Source: an uncultured Planctomycetota bacterium (lineage in GTDB: Bacteria; Planctomycetota; J058). Taken from it: a stretch of DNA of 51,289 bases. A program made the position numbers and the translations under genes. Each line of letters opens with the position of its first letter. Position 1 is the first letter of the stretch. The stretch lies in assembly GCA_964569055.1 (NCBI GenBank), contig CAZMSZ010000005.1:1-51289 (forward strand). Direction: 5' to 3'. Of this stretch, positions 4,654 through 13,985 are shown piece after piece. The notes under the pieces were generated by a model. The model searched no databases and was not told where the DNA came from. It saw nothing but the letters and a program-made list of their open reading frames with translations.

Positions 4654-6480
4654 CTAGATCGCGGCGAACATGGCCGAGCGGTCGGGCGAGGTGGCCTGGG
4701 CGGCGCGCCAGGCGTTCTCGCACAGGACCTGGCTGACGAAGAACCGCGCCGTCTCGACCTTGGCGGCGTAGAAGGCGCGCTCCTCGTCGCCGCCCGCCCA
4801 GCCGGCCCGCTCGGCGCGGTCGGCCGGGGCGCCGGCCTCGGCCAGCCAAGCCTCGGCGATCAGGGCCTGCTGCAGGAGCAGGTAGCCGCCGACCATGTTG
4901 CCGCACAGGGTGAGGAAGGGCGTGGCGCCCAGGGCGGCGCCCACGAAGTCCTTGCTGCCGAGCGCGCCGGCGAGCTGGGTCGCCACGGCGCCGACCTCCT
5001 TGGCGCGGCGGCCGAGCTCGACCAGCTCGGCGTCGAACGCTCCGCCGTGGCTGCCCCCGCTCTGCTCGAGGAAGGCCCCGATCTCGCCGAGCAGCTCCTT
5101 GAGCGCCTCGCCGCGGTCGCCGGCCACCTTGCGGAACAGGAGGTCGATCGCCTGGATCCCGTTGGTCCCCTCGTAGACGCAGGCGATCCGCGCGTCGCGC
5201 ACCAGCTGCTCCACCCCGTACTCGGTGCAGTAGCCGTAGCCGCCGAACACCTGCATGGCGGTCGAGCTGGCCTGGAACCCGACCTCGCTGCCCCAGGCCT
5301 TGCAGATCGGGGTCAGCAGCGCCACCCGCCGGGCGAGGCGCGCCCGCTCCTCGCCCTCGGCGGCGGCCTCCTGGTCGAGGAGCGCGCCGGTCCAGTAGAG
5401 GAGCGCGCGCGCCGCCTCGCTCTGGGCCTTCACGGTCAGCAGCATGCGCCGCACGTCGGGGTGCTCGATGATCGCGACCTTGTCCTGGGTGAGCGACTTG
5501 CCCTTGGCGATCGAGGAGCCCTGGATCCGCTCCTTGGCGTAGCGGAGCGCCAGGCCGTAGGCGGTCGCGGCCAGGGCCTGGCCCTGCTGCCCGACCACGA
5601 CCCGCTCCTCGTTCATGATGTCGAACATGATCGAGATCCCCTGGCGGGGCTCGCCGATCAGGTAGCCCTCGCACCCCCCGTTCTCGCCGAACTTCATGGT
5701 GGTGGTGACCGAGCCGTGGATCCCCATCTTCTCCTCGATCCCGGCGCAGAACACGTCGTTGGGGATCGTGGGGTTGCCCTCGGCGTCGAGCCGCAGCTTG
5801 GGCACGATGAAGATCGAGAGCCCCTTCACGCCCGCCGGGTCGCCCTCGATCCGCGCCAGGACGATGTGCACCACGTTGTCGACCATGTCGTGGTCGCCCG
5901 AGGTGATGAACACCTTCTCGCCCTGGATCCGGTAGCGGTCGCCCTCGATCAGGGTGGCGGTGGTGCGCGAGGCGCCGACGTCCGAGCCCGCGCCGCTCTC
6001 GGTGAGGCACATGGTGCCCTGCCACGTGGCCGAGATCAGCGGCTTGGCCCAGGTCTCCTGCTGCTCGGGGCTGGCGCGCCGCACCAGCATGTTGGCGCAG
6101 GCCCGGGTCAGGCCGGTGTAGTTGTGGAACGCGCAGCACGAGCCGATGATCAGCTCGTCCATGGCGGTCACCAGGCTCTGCGGCAGCCCCTGCCCCCCGA
6201 GCTCCTCGGGGTGCGGCATGCTCCCCCAGCCGTCCTCGCGCCACTGATCGAGCGCGCGCCGGTAGCCGGGCGGGGTGGTCACCGAGCCGTCCTCGTGGCG
6301 CACGCAGCCGACGCGATCGCCCTCGGCGTTGATCGGGGCGAGGAACTCGCTCACGAAGTTGAAGCCCGCCTCGAGGAACTGCTCGAAGGTGTCGCGGTCG
6401 AGCGCGAGGTGCTCCTGCACCCGGAGGTGCTCGAACAGCGTGAAGCGAATGTCGCGCATCTGGAGGGGCGAGTCGGCCAT
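4654..6480 (-). CDS. Acyl-CoA dehydrogenase (long, about 600-aa subfamily)
   Basis: GTMCLTESGAGSDVG, GEKVFITSGDHD, IEEKMGIHGSVT, QVFGGYGYCTEYGVEQLVRDARIACVYEGTNGIQAIDL; SD aggag upstream. Confidence 0.95.
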   Translation of the reverse strand: MADSPLQMRDIRFTLFEHLRVQEHLALDRDTFEQFLEAGFNFVSEFLAPINAEGDRVGCVRHEDGSVTTPPGYRRALDQWREDGWGSMPHPEELGGQGLPQSLVTAMDELIIGSCCAFHNYTGLTRACANMLVRRASPEQQETWAKPLISATWQGTMCLTESGAGSDVGASRTTATLIEGDRYRIQGEKVFITSGDHDMVDNVVHIVLARIEGDPAGVKGLSIFIVPKLRLDAEGNPTIPNDVFCAGIEEKMGIHGSVTTTMKFGENGGCEGYLIGEPRQGISIMFDIMNEERVVVGQQGQALAATAYGLALRYAKERIQGSSIAKGKSLTQDKVAIIEHPDVRRMLLTVKAQSEAARALLYWTGALLDQEAAAEGEERARLARRVALLTPICKAWGSEVGFQASSTAMQVFGGYGYCTEYGVEQLVRDARIACVYEGTNGIQAIDLLFRKVAGDRGEALKELLGEIGAFLEQSGGSHGGAFDAELVELGRRAKEVGAVATQLAGALGSKDFVGAALGATPFLTLCGNMVGGYLLLQQALIAEAWLAEAGAPADRAERAGWAGGDEERAFYAAKVETARFFVSQVLCENAWRAAQATSPDRSAMFAAI

Positions 6481-7969: not shown

Positions 7970-10267
<2,298 letters not shown>

Positions 10268-10349
10268 CTTCGTCGCTCCCGCCCGGAGGCCCGAGACCCT
10301 TGAGAGTATAGGAATTGCGCCGCGCTCGCACGACCCCGCCCCGGGCTGG

Positions 10350-10378
10350 TTGCAGGAGCGGCCCGACCCTGCCACGCT
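10350..10378 (+). promoter_or_regulatory. Possible sigma-70-type promoter of the Pup-like operon
   Basis: TTGCAG-N17-CACGCT, same architecture as 33764-33792. Confidence 0.3.
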
Positions 10379-10413
10379 AATCCTAGAGTCCGACGAATTT
10401 GGGTGAGGTCCCC

Positions 10414-10725
10414 ATGAGCGCCTCGAGCTTCGAGGTCCTGCTGCAGTCGTTCCCGAGCATGGCCGGCGCCCTGCAGGGACTGGCCGACCCGTCGAGCGCG
10501 GCGATCCCCGCCGGCGCGGGCCTGCTCCTGGTGCTCGCCGCCGCGGCGGCCCTGCGCGGCCGGGCCGCGCCCGTCTCCCCCGCCGCCGCCACCCCGCTGC
10601 CCTCGGCCGCGCTCGGCGACGCGGCCCCGGCCGCGAGCCCCGCCATGGAGCTGGCCGTGGGGGCGACGGAGGGCGCGGGCGCCGCCGCGCTGCTCGGGCT
10701 CACCACCGCGGGCGGCGGCGAGTAG
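10414..10725 (+). CDS. Pup-like small modifier protein with hydrophobic segment and C-terminal GGE
   Basis: 103 aa, third codon positions almost all G/C, SD gagg upstream, ends AAALLGLTTAGGGE, lies directly upstream of a PafA-type ligase. Confidence 0.7.
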   Translation: MSASSFEVLLQSFPSMAGALQGLADPSSAAIPAGAGLLLVLAAAAALRGRAAPVSPAAATPLPSAALGDAAPAASPAMELAVGATEGAGAAALLGLTTAGGGE

Positions 10726-10767
10726 CGGATCGCGACCGCCACGCCCGGCGAGCCCGTCCCCGCGCGC

Positions 10768-12795
10768 CTGCGACTGCTCGGCGTCGAGACCGAGTACGCG
10801 CTCGGCTTCGAGCCCGCCGCCGGCGAGGCCGGCCCCTCGCCCTCGCAGCGCCGTTTGTTCGGCGGCTACCTCACCGCGCTCCGCCGCCGGCTCCGCTCGG
10901 CCGAGGCGCTGTACTACAAGGAGGGCGACTTCCTCGAGGACGGCTCGCTGCTCCACTTCGAGCTCTCGCAGCTCGCCGACCCCGACGCGGGCCTGCTCGA
11001 GTGGGCCACCCCCGAGTGCCGCGGCCCGGTCGAGGCCGCCTGCGTGCTGCGGGCGCAGGAGGAGCTGCTGCGCGCGGCGAGCGACGACGTGGCGCGCGAG
11101 CTGGCGGCGGCGGGCCACGAGGGGCGCGCGTTCCTGCTCAAGAACAACCGCGACCGCGCCGGGAACGCCTACGGCTGCCACGAGTCGTACGACGCCCGCG
11201 AGCGCCCGGCCGGTCCGCGCCGGCTCCTGTTCGCGTGGATCCTGCACCCGCTCGTCGTCTCCCTGTGCGTGACCACGGCGGTGGCCGCGCTGAGCGTGCC
11301 CGTTGTCGTGCTGGCGGCCGGAGCCGTGCTCTACGCCGCCCTCGCGGTCTTGGGCGAGCTCCCGCTGCTCGGCGCGCTCCCGCGCGCGCTCGGCCGCGCG
11401 CTGGTCGGCGTGGCCAGCTACCTGGGCGAGCCGGGCCCCGGGCCGGGGCAGGGCGCCGCCGCGCGCGCGTTCCTCCTCCTGCTGCGCGGCCTGGCGGCGC
11501 TGTTCAGCCTCACCGCGCGCGAGGTGATCCTGGCCGGGCACGTCCCGGCGCTGGTCCCGTTCCTGGTCACCCGCCCGCTCCTGTGCGGGGCGGGCCACCT
11601 CACGCCGGACGGTCGCTACGAGCTGTCCCCGCGCGCGGCGATCACCGACCGGGTGGCGGCTGCGTTCATCTACGGGCGCACCCGCCCGCTGATCGAGCTC
11701 AAGGAGTTCTTCTTCCAGCAGCTCCTGCGCTGGGGCGCCGCGCGCAAGCGGCTGCAGCTCGTGTGCGGCGACGCCAACCGCGCCGAGCCGGCGGCGCTGC
11801 TCAAGCTCGGCACGACCTGCGCCGTGCTCGAGGCGATCGAGGCCGGCGCGCTCGACGAGCTCGCCGCCCGGCTCGAGCTGCTCGGCGGCCCGCTCGCCGC
11901 GTTCCGCGCCGCCTGCGCCGACCCGAGCGCGCGCGCGCCGGTCGCGCGCGACCGCGCCACCGGCGCGCTGCTCTCGGCGCACGACGTGCAGCGCCGCTAC
12001 CTCGAGGCGGTGTGGGCGCACGCCCGCGCCCGCCCCGACTGGCCGAGCGAGCTCACGGGCGCGCTCCGCCGCTGGGACGACGCCCTGCGCCGCCTGCGCG
12101 AGGAGCCGGCGACCCTCGCGCGCGACCTCGACTGGGCGATCAAGCTCGACCTGCTCCAGGCCACGCTCCAAGACGCGCTCCCGAACCGCCCCCTCGACGC
12201 CGCCTGGCGCGCGCTCCAGGCCTGGGGCCCGATCAACGCCCTCCTCGAGCGCCACGCCCCCAGCGCCCCGTTCCCGCCCGGCGAGCCCGCCCCCGCTGTC
12301 GCCGCCCGCCTCCGCGCCGCCCTCGGCCGAGGCCGCTACGCCCAGGCCGCCCGCGCCGCCCGCGCCGCGAACCTCGACTGGGCCGAGCTCCCCGCGGTGC
12401 GCGCCGCCTGGCTCCGGATGGCCGCCGCCGACCTCGGCTACCACGAGCTCTCCGCGCGAGGCGGCGCCTTCGAGGCCCTCGAAGCCGAGGGCCGGATCGC
12501 GCGCGCCCTCGACCCCGCCGCCGTGGCCCGCGCCCGCCAGCAGGCGCCCCACACCACCCGCGCCCGCCTACGCGGCCTCGCCGTCGCCCGCCGCGGCGCC
12601 CTCGGCGAACGCCGCGGCGGCGTGAAGGTCGGCTGGACCCGCGTGGAGCTCGGCGGCGCCGAGGAGCGCGCGACGTTCGCCCTCGACGACCCCGACCGCC
12701 ACGAGCACCCCGAGCTCGAGGCGGCGCTGGCGGCGGAGATCGAGGAGGTGGCGACTGTCGTGAGCGAGGACGAGCAGCGCGAGGACGCGGGTTGA
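10768..12795 (+). CDS. pafA: Pup-ligase (PafA-type, carboxylate-amine ligase fold) with transmembrane insert; start uncertain (CTG 10768, ATC 10729 or readthrough)
   Basis: RLLGVETEY, LLEWATPEC, KNNRDRAGNAYGCHESY, LVPFLVTRPLLCGAG, YELSPRA, TRPLI, RLQLVCGDAN, DLDWAIK, DLGYHEL, TTRARLRG; hydrophobic insert at about 11224-11530. Confidence 0.88.
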   Translation: MRLLGVETEYALGFEPAAGEAGPSPSQRRLFGGYLTALRRRLRSAEALYYKEGDFLEDGSLLHFELSQLADPDAGLLEWATPECRGPVEAACVLRAQEELLRAASDDVARELAAAGHEGRAFLLKNNRDRAGNAYGCHESYDARERPAGPRRLLFAWILHPLVVSLCVTTAVAALSVPVVVLAAGAVLYAALAVLGELPLLGALPRALGRALVGVASYLGEPGPGPGQGAAARAFLLLLRGLAALFSLTAREVILAGHVPALVPFLVTRPLLCGAGHLTPDGRYELSPRAAITDRVAAAFIYGRTRPLIELKEFFFQQLLRWGAARKRLQLVCGDANRAEPAALLKLGTTCAVLEAIEAGALDELAARLELLGGPLAAFRAACADPSARAPVARDRATGALLSAHDVQRRYLEAVWAHARARPDWPSELTGALRRWDDALRRLREEPATLARDLDWAIKLDLLQATLQDALPNRPLDAAWRALQAWGPINALLERHAPSAPFPPGEPAPAVAARLRAALGRGRYAQAARAARAANLDWAELPAVRAAWLRMAAADLGYHELSARGGAFEALEAEGRIARALDPAAVARARQQAPHTTRARLRGLAVARRGALGERRGGVKVGWTRVELGGAEERATFALDDPDRHEHPELEAALAAEIEEVATVVSEDEQREDAG

Positions 12796-12801
12796 AAGGA
12801 C

Positions 12802-12964
12802 CGGTGTCGGACACCGCGGCAGAGCTGTCGCGGGCAAGGCGGGCTCCCTGGCGTGAAAATCGACCGCCAACTGCGCCGAGAGCGCCAAGGAAGAGCTGTC
12901 GCTGCTGCGACGACCTCCTCGACCGCCACGTGCATGAAGGAGCTGTCGTCGAGCGACAGCTCCT
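12802..12964. repeat. Palindrome and repeat cluster in a convergent intergenic region
   Basis: cggtgtc-g-gacaccg (12802-16); (a/g)gagctgtcg at 12821, 12892 and 12939; hairpin aggagctgtcg-tcgag-cgacagctcct (12938-64). Confidence 0.6.
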
Positions 12965-13019
12965 CCTCGACACATCGCTCGCCCGAAGAGCCGCGGCCGA
13001 CGGTCCCGCTCTCTGCGAC

Positions 13020-13073
13020 TCCGAATCCGAATCCGAATCCGAATCCGAATCCGAGTCCGAATCCGAATCCGAG
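13020..13073. repeat. Hexamer tandem repeat (TCCGAR)9
   Basis: tccgaa x5, tccgag, tccgaa x2, tccgag. Confidence 0.95.
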
Positions 13074-13082
13074 TCGCCTCTC

Positions 13083-13985
13083 TCACCGCATCAGCGCGTC
13101 GATCGCCTCCAGCGTCGCGCGGGCGCCGCCCGGGAGCGAGATCCCGTTGGGGATCGAGGCGGGGATCCACGGCTCGCGGGGGTTGATCCGGATCAGGGTG
13201 TTCTCGCCGCGGCTGGCGATGCTCTCGCAGGTGGAGCGCACGGTGGGGATCGCCGTGCCGGCGCCCAGTTCGACCACCGCGATCCGGCGGCCCTCGAGGC
13301 CGCGGGTCCAGGCCCAGAAGCGGCTGGCCTGCTGGGACTGGCGGGCCTCGTTCCAGCCCCAGTCGCCGAACATCAGGATGTTCGGACGGCCGAGGCCGCC
13401 GCAGGCGGGGCAGCTCGGGAGGGGCTCGGCGGCGCGCATGGTGGTCTCGTCCACCTCGATCGGCTCGGGCGACGCGGGGTAGATCGGGTGGCCGCAGTCG
13501 GCGAGGCACTGGTCGTGGTCGATCGCGCCGTGGCACTCGTCGATCCGCTCGGGGTCGAAGCCGGCCCGGTGGAACTGGCCGTCCACGTTGGAGGTGAACA
13601 CGAAGGAGCCGCCCGCTCGGGCCTCGCCCCAGCGGCGCAGGATCGTGAACCCCTCGTGCGGGGTGGTCGCGCGGTACAGGTTGCGGCGGTGGCCGTAGAA
13701 GCCCCAGGCGAAGGCCGGGTCGTCGCGGAACCACTTCGGGTTCGCCATGGCGGCGAAGCCGACCCCGAGGTGGGCGTAGGGCGGATACGCCTTCCAGAAG
13801 CCCTGGTCGCCGCGGAAGTCGGGGAGGCCCGAGTCGACCCCCATGCCCGCGCCGGCGCCGACGAGCAGCGCGTCGGCGCTCGCGATCGCCTCGGCGGCGC
13901 GCGCGAGCGCCTCGGGGTCGAGCGGCCTGCGCCCGCTCGCTCGCGCCTCGAGCAGCCCCTCGTCCTCCGTGCGCTCCTCGCCCAT
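13083..13985 (-). CDS. Sir2-family NAD-dependent protein deacylase
   Basis: GAGAGMGVDSGLPDFRG, FTSNVDGQF, ECHGAI, zinc CxxxC...CPAC, RPNILMFGD, ELGAGTAIPTVR, IRINP. Confidence 0.95.
   Translation of the reverse strand: MGEERTEDEGLLEARASGRRPLDPEALARAAEAIASADALLVGAGAGMGVDSGLPDFRGDQGFWKAYPPYAHLGVGFAAMANPKWFRDDPAFAWGFYGHRRNLYRATTPHEGFTILRRWGEARAGGSFVFTSNVDGQFHRAGFDPERIDECHGAIDHDQCLADCGHPIYPASPEPIEVDETTMRAAEPLPSCPACGGLGRPNILMFGDWGWNEARQSQQASRFWAWTRGLEGRRIAVVELGAGTAIPTVRSTCESIASRGENTLIRINPREPWIPASIPNGISLPGGARATLEAIDALMR

Follow-up and report, generated by a model that had tools for sequence, protein, structure and literature searches.

To our knowledge, bacteria have no protein-to-protein tagging system of this type other than pupylation, and nearly all that is understood about it comes from the actinobacterial route to the proteasome. 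A computational survey by Iyer, Burroughs and Aravind (2008) described Pup orthologues with a G[EQ] end that adjoin a PafA homologue in Rhodopirellula and Plesiocystis. It reported a Pup ligase with four transmembrane (TM) segments and an adjacent G[EQ] protein, a linked gene for a membrane protein and no linkage to the proteasome, and proposed that membrane proteins are pupylated for regulation (PMC2588565). Here we analyze a locus in the first 51,289 bases (the window) of contig CAZMSZ010000005.1, which belongs to the assembly of an uncultured Planctomycetota bacterium from soil (7.76 Mb, 625 contigs, 92.66% complete; GC content about 75%). A small open reading frame (ORF) ending in Gly-Gly-Gly-Glu, called the modifier below, directly precedes the gene for a ligase of the PafA/Dop family that carries a hydrophobic insert.

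On the combined analyses, the two genes probably form a cassette that tags proteins at the membrane in the manner of pupylation and independently of a proteasome. At the expense of ATP, it would ligate the terminal Glu of the modifier to lysines on the cytoplasmic side of the membrane. A preliminary description, made from the sequence letters, had pointed to such a pair; the earlier computational note on TM-containing PafA homologues that it mentioned is the 2008 paper (PMC2588565).

Organization of the locus

The modifier ORF of 103 aa lies on the forward strand, from an ATG at 10414 to a TAG at 10723-10725, and a GGTGAGG-like stretch is found 5 nt 5' of the ATG. The ligase open frame (10726-12795, stop to stop, 689 codons) begins at the codon directly after this TAG. 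In the window, both ORFs are in one frame and the TAG is their sole separator. It is covered by contigs of four soil runs (X1-X4), for which no difference is reported there; the runs come from one study and are possibly the source samples, so that they are not independent of the window. We rejected a read-through fusion of modifier and ligase. The two are in different frames in the same-genus relative, so the fusion is not conserved, and it would bury the Glu. The shared frame across the TAG and the lack of an ATG, GTG or TTG before GVETEY had both been missed in the preliminary description. The features of the cassette are listed below, with ligase residues numbered from 10729.

10414..10725, + strand: modifier ORF, 103 aa, ending GGGE before the TAG; positional counterparts with a GGGE end in 13 of 16 own-lineage loci
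10489..10560, + strand: hydrophobic, TM-like segment of the modifier (aa 26-49) by hydropathy, with an acidic N-terminal flank and RGR after it
10591..10722, + strand: aa 60-103 of the modifier, its C-terminal part; the complex prediction places it in the groove of the ligase, its GGE tail at the active site
10723..10725, + strand: TAG stop between the modifier and the in-frame ligase, from ORF analysis
10771..12795, + strand: ligase gene, drawn from CTG 10771, a putative start that aligns with the GTG/ATG of relatives; the frame is open from 10726
10780..10797, + strand: GVETEY, N-terminal strand for nucleotide/Mg in the PafA/Dop fold; the predicted interface includes its residues 22 and 24-28
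10855..10857, + strand: TTG taken as start by gene callers (646-aa form, P0003), most likely an internal Leu codon; CTG in a strain variant and in the same-genus relative
11197..11529, + strand: predicted membrane insert of the ligase (aa ~157-267), directly after GCHESY, from hydropathy, alignment and AF2 helices
12172..12414, + strand: second insert of the ligase, helical (aa ~482-562) and confined to the window's own lineage, from alignment and AF2 helices; parts contact the modifier in the model

A GGE-ending ORF precedes the ligase at related loci

Among 57 loci fetched from species-representative genomes, the N-terminus of the ligase could be located in 47; L029, L030, L058, L063, L065-L068, L074 and L076 were left out, as this N-terminus or its motif was not found in the locus. 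An upstream ORF ending in GGE (≤450 nt) was present in 42 of the 47, against 48 GGE ends in the whole set of 9,996 stop-to-stop ORFs (≥25 aa) from the same loci, a count that includes the upstream ORFs themselves. The search was for a G[EQ] end, and all 42 modifiers found end in Glu, none in Gln. The exceptions were L026 (contig edge), L027, L031 (which ends GGAE), L061 (from an actinomycete, without the insert) and L077 (a spurious motif match). In L031, at about 5700-5940, the ORF upstream of an insert-bearing ligase ends ...WDIPGGAE, possibly a variant tail.

In the window's own lineage, a GGGE-ending ORF was found in 13 of 16 usable loci, namely 8 of 9 genome loci (in one only as TRGGGE-stop at a contig edge) and 5 of 7 metagenome loci. 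L012, L014, L016, L093 and L094 could not be used for the upstream ORF. L021-L028, which are the same records as L005-L011 and L013, were counted once, and kin are not independent, since WIN/G001, G004/G007 and G005/G008 are same-genus pairs. The pairing of modifier and ligase and the terminal Glu, both taken from a single locus in the preliminary description, are thus conserved across related loci.

The window modifier ends in ...AAALLGLTTAGGGE, its last residues being LLGLTTAGGGE. Modifiers of its lineage share (Q)RVL.L..PGGGE-type tails, and 24 modifiers of the wide family have the consensus ...IR.DA......YL.ET.VP.GGE. GGAGG-like stretches precede several modifier starts. A profile of the wide-family modifiers aligned with three actinobacterial Pups from the fetched loci over 38 columns reaching the C-terminus (hhalign probability 64.8%, E 6.1e-5). 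Within the explanation that we favor, the window modifier would be a highly diverged counterpart of Pup, of which the C-terminal ...GGGE is the only strictly kept feature. Strain variants in runs X1-X4 (10454-10855) include 10660 G>A in the modifier.

The ligase has the PafA/Dop fold and a hydrophobic insert

The ligase matches PF03136 with 238.4 bits (cut-off 25, E 2e-70) over profile positions 1-360 and a second stretch, and its closest named relatives are in metagenome-assembled genomes of Planctomycetota. With this match and the GGGE end, a 103-aa GGE-ending ORF and a PafA-type ligase, as first described, are indeed present. The motifs named at that stage were also recovered (GVETEY, ATPEC, KNNRDRAGNAYGCHE and TTRARLRG), as was Gln for the usual His: the protein has RLQLVCGDAN and most relatives have RLHL. 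The His of RLHxxGDAN is replaced by Gln in the window, the same-genus relative and two distant relatives, and is retained in most other aligned members. Across 23 lineage members, 82 columns are invariant, and the window protein, itself one of the 23, keeps all 82.

Sequence matches to solved structures led to Dop (E 2.3e-33) and PafA (E 2.6e-30). An AF2 model of the ligase, built from an alignment of 17 sequences, reached a mean pLDDT of 90.6 and a pTM of 0.89. Its top ten Foldseek matches were all Dop or PafA (E 3e-24 to 1e-16, TMt 0.73-0.82), the best being Dop 4b0r (E 3e-24, TMt 0.81) and PafA-Pup 4bjr. GCS-type folds appeared among the weaker matches.

The hydrophobic insert, put at about 100 aa in the preliminary description, measures about 110 aa (residues ~157-267). 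It lies between GCHESY and the HVPALVPFLVTR / LVPFLVTR helix, a site that corresponds to Dop residues 159/166 and PafA residues 134/145. Hydrophobic Kyte-Doolittle windows cover residues 165-218 and 243-261, and AF2 places helices at 163-209, 216-233 and 243-266. Both flanks of the insert are in the cytoplasmic ATP-dependent domain, and an even number of membrane spans is therefore expected. The 47-residue helix may be a hairpin. The insert is kept in relatives down to 31-33% identity. A second insert of about 80 aa (residues ~482-562) is helical, with AF2 helices from 489 to 571, and was found only in the window's lineage; it is missing from P0029, P0033 and P0035, and Dop residues 375 to 385 span its site.

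Insert-bearing ligases form a large family outside PafA and Dop

A HMMER search of 1.84 billion cluster representatives returned 2,157 relatives with E ≤0.001, of which 170 reach E ≤1e-30. We classed 184 proteins by counting hydrophobic windows over the 170 residues that follow the GCHE-type motif; 16 of them were unclassifiable (shorter than 430 aa or without the motif) and were left out of both the insert count and the tree. At the insert position, 139 of the 168 classifiable proteins have at least two hydrophobic windows, 10 have one and 19 have none. A FastTree phylogeny of the 168, unrooted and made by a fast method, for which we claim no order of events, gathers 18 of the 19 insert-free rows and 3 one-window rows in a single clade (support 100). 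The window ligase is placed in a separate clade of 26 rows (support 100, stem length 0.76).

Judged by this tree, the insert-bearing ligases fall outside PafA+Dop. The PF03136 search and the phylogeny, both suggested in the preliminary description as checks, place the window ligase inside the family and outside the PafA+Dop clade (support 100). In agreement with the tree, single-copy homologues from Planctomycetes were used as outgroup for PafA and Dop in a 2020 study (PMC7947786). The ligase was found in all 10 other genomes of the same taxonomic family.

The C-terminal part of the modifier is predicted to occupy the active site

The predicted complex of modifier and ligase scored 0.82 (runs 0.80, 0.83 and 0.82), and the best of three controls scored 0.00. 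Of 80 solved complexes, 58 reach this mark, as do 2 of 110 mismatched pairs; the counts are rough, since we supplied our own alignments. At least 75% of contacts agree between the runs, and the partner pLDDT is at least 61. Confident contacts involve only modifier residues 60-103, the last 44. On the ligase they comprise residues 22-28 (the ETEY strand), 78, 135-151, 296-297, 313-319, 345, 397-403, 460-497 and 562-589, a list that takes in the second insert; contacts at the active site include residues 22-28, 78 and 142-151. The complex prediction supports binding of the modifier by the ligase.

The genome lacks the known proteasome route

No linkage to the proteasome was found in the window or the genome. 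The best score of any genome protein against the Mpa model was 156.7 bits (cut-off 504.75). For the bacterial 20S beta model, none of 21 genomes (the window's and 20 relatives) exceeded the cut-off (best 30.3 versus 191.9 bits), and neither did any of 14 control genomes, so that this search has no positive control. The single PF00227 match is a 188-aa protein beginning ...TTILSV, beside an HslU-like ORF; by sequence, we read the two genes as HslV/HslU. The genome has one PF03136 gene. The absence of Dop and proteasome genes, first noted for the window, thus extends to the whole 92.66% complete assembly.

The hydrophobic segment of the modifier is specific to part of the lineage

The window modifier contains hydrophobic AGAGLLLVLAAAAALRGR, and its Kyte-Doolittle maximum is 2.18 in a 19-residue window (aa 26-49) and 2.23 in a 17-residue window. 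Long modifiers of the lineage (94-117 aa) have an N-terminal extension with an EVL-type motif and a hydrophobic stretch of 17-19 residues, followed by Arg/Lys. Over 17 residues, the Kyte-Doolittle value is 1.92-2.28 in six of them (the window, L021, L022, L025, L028 and L090); the L091 modifier has a shorter hydrophobic run. Short modifiers (46-68 aa; L023, L024, L086, L087 and L092) are hydrophilic. Altogether, 5 of the 12 full-length modifiers of the own lineage have no TM-like segment; in the wide family, 23 of 24 are hydrophilic, with values below 1, the single exception having a doubtful start.

The hydrophobic modifier of the preliminary description is therefore real in the window and not general, and the comparison of upstream ORFs that it suggested gave a conserved GGE end without a general TM segment. 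The segment is an elaboration of this lineage, carried by about half of its modifiers. Acidic residues precede it and basic residues follow it. Under the positive-inside rule, this pattern would fit a single span with the N-terminus outside and the C-terminus inside, leaving the GGE tail of the long modifiers in the cytoplasm.

The ligase probably starts at a non-canonical codon

In relatives, the ligase starts at a GTG or ATG located 4-6 codons before the G of GLETEY. Exactly at this place the window has CTG 10771, and the same-genus genome has CTC, its only candidate being an ATT two codons before the Gly. Near-cognate candidates 5' of GVETEY in the window are limited to CTG 10771 and ATC 10732, and the first ATG, GTG or TTG of the ligase frame is TTG 10855, 3' of the motif. 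With no canonical start before the motif, public gene calls begin downstream (646 aa and 633 aa) and drop the catalytic strand.

A strain variant in the soil runs has CTG in place of TTG 10855 together with a silent change at 10854; it also carries 10757 T>C (Val to Ala) and, after 10749, a 9-nt insertion that keeps the frame. Since CTG stands at the TTG position in the same-genus relative as well, the annotated TTG behaves like a Leu codon inside the gene. GVETEYALGF is identical in both genomes despite surrounding synonymous changes. These comparisons make it most likely that the ligase is made from a non-canonical start, possibly one that is coupled to termination of the modifier ORF.

Neighboring genes and intergenic sequence

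Two further features lie on the 5' side of the cassette.

7970..10375, - strand: divergently oriented gene for a sigma-54 activator (TPR, GAF, AAA+ and HTH domains); resemblance to relatives starts at residue ~34-44 of the frame
10305..10375, no strand assigned: conserved intergenic blocks AGTATAG (10305-10311), TTGCA (10350-10354) and TGCCAC (10370-10375), invariant columns in 7 own-lineage loci

In 9 own-lineage loci, a copy of the activator (GAFTGA-type, 71-82% identical) is found at this position, which makes it better conserved than the ligase. The gene was not found in the three TPR-coupled loci described below, nor in 13 wide-family loci searched. The intergenic stretch between activator and cassette is 10259-10413. 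A sigma-54 promoter was considered here and rejected, as TGGCACG-N4-TTGCW (≤2 mismatches) occurs at 3 sites in the window, with 4.65 expected, and none is near the locus; the conserved blocks themselves have the wrong spacing for such a promoter. With no sigma-54 promoter consensus found, regulation by the neighboring activator is not supported. A scan of 10200-13100 for sigma-70 promoters and terminators found nothing.

On the 3' side, genes for a cobalamin adenosyltransferase and a HEAT-repeat protein are syntenic in 6 lineage loci. A convergent Sir2-family gene (lysine deacylase-type, 13083-13985, - strand) lies between the ligase gene and the cobalamin adenosyltransferase gene in the window and L026 only. 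Just 3' of the ligase, at 13016-13072, there is a tandem repeat of the hexanucleotide CGAATC in 9.5 copies. A similar short-period repeat, giving RLRL, ESES or GVGI runs in translation, is found beside the HslV-like gene (L003, ~2100-2450), which suggests that this repeat type is scattered across intergenic regions of the genome. Beyond the lineage, an all-against-all BLAST of six-frame ORFs from 42 loci, searched for conserved neighbors, returned only antisense shadows of the ligase at ≥50 bits. Outside the lineage, only the two-gene cassette is conserved.

Proposed function and alternatives

In the mechanism that we propose, the helical insert just after the GCHE strand would hold the ligase at the cytoplasmic face of the membrane. 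By analogy with PafA, the last ~44 residues of the modifier would bind in the ligase groove, and ATP would phosphorylate the side-chain carboxylate of the terminal Glu. An amine, most likely from a lysine in a protein located at the membrane or close to it, would attack the acyl-phosphate, and an isopeptide bond would form. Because the tag ends in Glu, no deamidase would be needed. Since the genome has neither Mpa nor a 20S proteasome, the tag cannot serve as a proteasome signal; its role would be to regulate or localize targets, or to mark them for another machine. Conjugates of the long modifiers, with their TM-like helix, would be tethered to the membrane. As the hydrophobic anchor is not general, such tethering would be at most a lineage-specific elaboration.

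Several observations weigh against this reading. For the ligase, neither NCBIfam equivalog model is reached, with 193.3 bits versus 551.3 for PafA (TIGR03686) and 129 bits versus 492.3 for Dop (TIGR03688). The TRDEPH stretch of PafA/Dop is not kept, and the Asp of the PafA YLDVG strand, which we take to be catalytic, aligns to Glu78, a conservative change that is invariant in the lineage. No ATG, GTG or TTG is found between the preceding stop and the motif in the window (within 10726-10857) or the same-genus genome (L021, 5972-6030). The dN/dS between the two ligases is 0.505 (NG86), and ~0.9 over the first 28-40 codons, values that are hard to read given few codons, a variable loop and extreme GC3, and on which we do not rely either way.

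The evidence on the modifier and its setting also includes adverse points. The Pfam Pup model (PF05639) had no match to the window modifier (E ≤1), to 10 other modifiers (E ≤10) or in a six-frame search of the genome, and the modifier profile found no Pup chain among PDB sequences, only a chance-level match (E 1.8). Between the own-lineage and wide-family profiles, only the last 8 C-terminal columns align (8.8% probability). As judged by these searches, the window modifier is without detectable homology to Pup beyond the tail, so that a shared ancestry with Pup is argued from position and tail and not from a homology that can be demonstrated. The register with the actinobacterial Pup tail that the preliminary description saw could not be upheld for the same reasons. 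The complex score may partly reflect memory of the solved PafA-Pup and Dop-Pup complexes, and hydropathy alone is no proof of a TM helix where GC is 75% and the proteome is rich in Ala. In L027, L088 and L089, a TPR-like gene (~1070-1340, ~920-1190 and ~2700-2970, respectively) ends at the ligase start, with no GGE-ending ORF found upstream of it or anywhere else in the locus; a replacement may have taken over from the modifier there, or its gene may lie at another site. The membrane-protein neighbor of Iyer et al. was not seen, and no recurrent membrane ORF lies 3' of the ligase in 32 loci. No experimental work on Pup ligase systems with a TM insert was found in the literature searched.

Among the alternatives to the proposed mechanism, it is possible, if somewhat doubtful, that the hydrophobic stretch of the modifier is no membrane anchor at all, and reflects either Ala/Leu-rich low complexity in a 75% GC genome or a helix packing on the ligase, in which case the tag would be soluble or peripheral, as in its relatives. 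The segment is only 17-19 residues long and Ala-rich, it is missing from the 5 own-lineage and 23 wide-family modifiers noted above, and it lies outside the confident interface, its position being undefined in the model. Yet it recurs in several genera, each time preceded by acidic residues and directly followed by Arg/Lys, its composition in L090 is Phe/Leu-rich instead of Ala-rich, and it keeps Kyte-Doolittle values of 1.92-2.28 over 17 residues in six modifiers. In another reading, which we regard as unlikely, the Pup-like tag of this lineage would itself be an integral membrane protein (single span, N-out/C-in); a ligase embedded in the membrane would join its cytoplasmic GGE tail to lysines and so staple targets covalently to the membrane, and ligase synthesis may depend on translation of the modifier through near-cognate re-initiation. 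If this were true, a ubiquitin-like tag would act as an anchor and not as a degradation signal.

A change of acceptor appears improbable. The same chemistry could use a non-protein amine, such as the head group of an aminolipid, by which a small protein would become lipidated, like Atg8 in outcome. The position of the insert directly after the active-site strand would suit this, as would the cassette without a conserved partner or target gene in the wide family and the gain of a membrane anchor by short, soluble modifiers; enzymes of the superfamily join carboxylates to small amines, according to the 2008 survey (PMC2588565), and GCS-type folds were among the weaker Foldseek matches. There is no direct evidence for such an acceptor, however, the closest characterized relatives act on protein lysines, and long modifiers with a TM-like helix need no lipid anchor. 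Very improbable, finally, is a ligase that is no longer expressed as an active enzyme in this genus, with start loss leading to no protein or to a truncated, inactive form from TTG 10855 or later. It would account for the missing ATG, GTG or TTG before GVETEY in both genomes, the truncated public gene calls (646 and 633 aa) and a dN/dS of 0.5, and long open frames arise easily at 75% GC. Against it stand the GVETEYALGF kept between the two genomes despite synonymous changes nearby, the retention of all 82 invariant lineage columns, the CTG (still Leu) for TTG in the strain variant and the relative, CTG 10771 exactly at the GTG/ATG of relatives, and a 9-nt indel in the strain variant that keeps the frame. 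We retain proteasome-independent tagging at the membrane as the probable function of the cassette.

Comparison with known systems

The membrane-anchored, proteasome-free branch of pupylation, predicted in 2008, is large, with 2,157 family members at E ≤0.001 and the insert in 139 of 168 classifiable top matches. The lineage described here is a compact, two-gene case that predicts Glu-dependent, ATP-dependent conjugation at the membrane, and its long and short modifiers offer a natural contrast between anchored and soluble tags. The modifier family is missed entirely by standard annotation, and public gene calls truncate the ligase so that its catalytic strand is removed.

The enzyme fold and motifs, the small tag with a GG-Glu end, and the predicted placement of the C-terminal part of the tag in the ligase groove are shared with actinobacterial pupylation. 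Unlike that system, the locus has one enzyme instead of two, which falls outside the PafA+Dop clade in our tree, carries the predicted membrane insert and has Glu in place of the PafA Asp; Mpa and the 20S proteasome were not found in the genome, and the modifier is not recognized by the Pfam Pup model. A terminal Glu also occurs in canonical systems, since the Kineococcus Pup in L067 (7317-7505) ends GGE and that of a congener in L068 ends GGQ.

UBact shares with the locus a Pup-like tag outside Actinobacteria. UBact-type loci of Gram-negative phyla include a proteasome, Mpa and Dop/PafA homologues. In contrast, the proteasome, Mpa and further Dop/PafA homologues were not found in the window's genome. 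An NCBIfam scan of the modifier gave no match in a library whose inclusion of a UBact model is unchecked.

The closest likeness is to the Rhodopirellula and Plesiocystis systems, as outlined in the 2008 survey: a single PafA/Dop-family gene with a multi-helix TM insert after the GCHE core strand, an adjacent upstream ORF with a G[EQ] end, and no proteasome linkage (PMC2588565). The locus differs in the linked membrane-protein gene, which was not found, in the placement of its ligase in a separate, well-supported clade of 26 rows with a long stem, and in the second helical insert of ~80 aa. The window ligase keeps GCHESY, whereas the large clade has GAQENY. Its lineage's modifiers have only the tail in common with those of the wide family, and often a TM-like segment of their own. 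Supplements of the 2008 and 2020 papers aside, we found no description of the divergent modifier with an optional, putatively TM-like extension, of the second ligase insert that is predicted to contact the modifier, of the conserved activator neighbor, or of the missing canonical start in the genus. The locus is a member of the kind already predicted in 2008, with features specific to its lineage.

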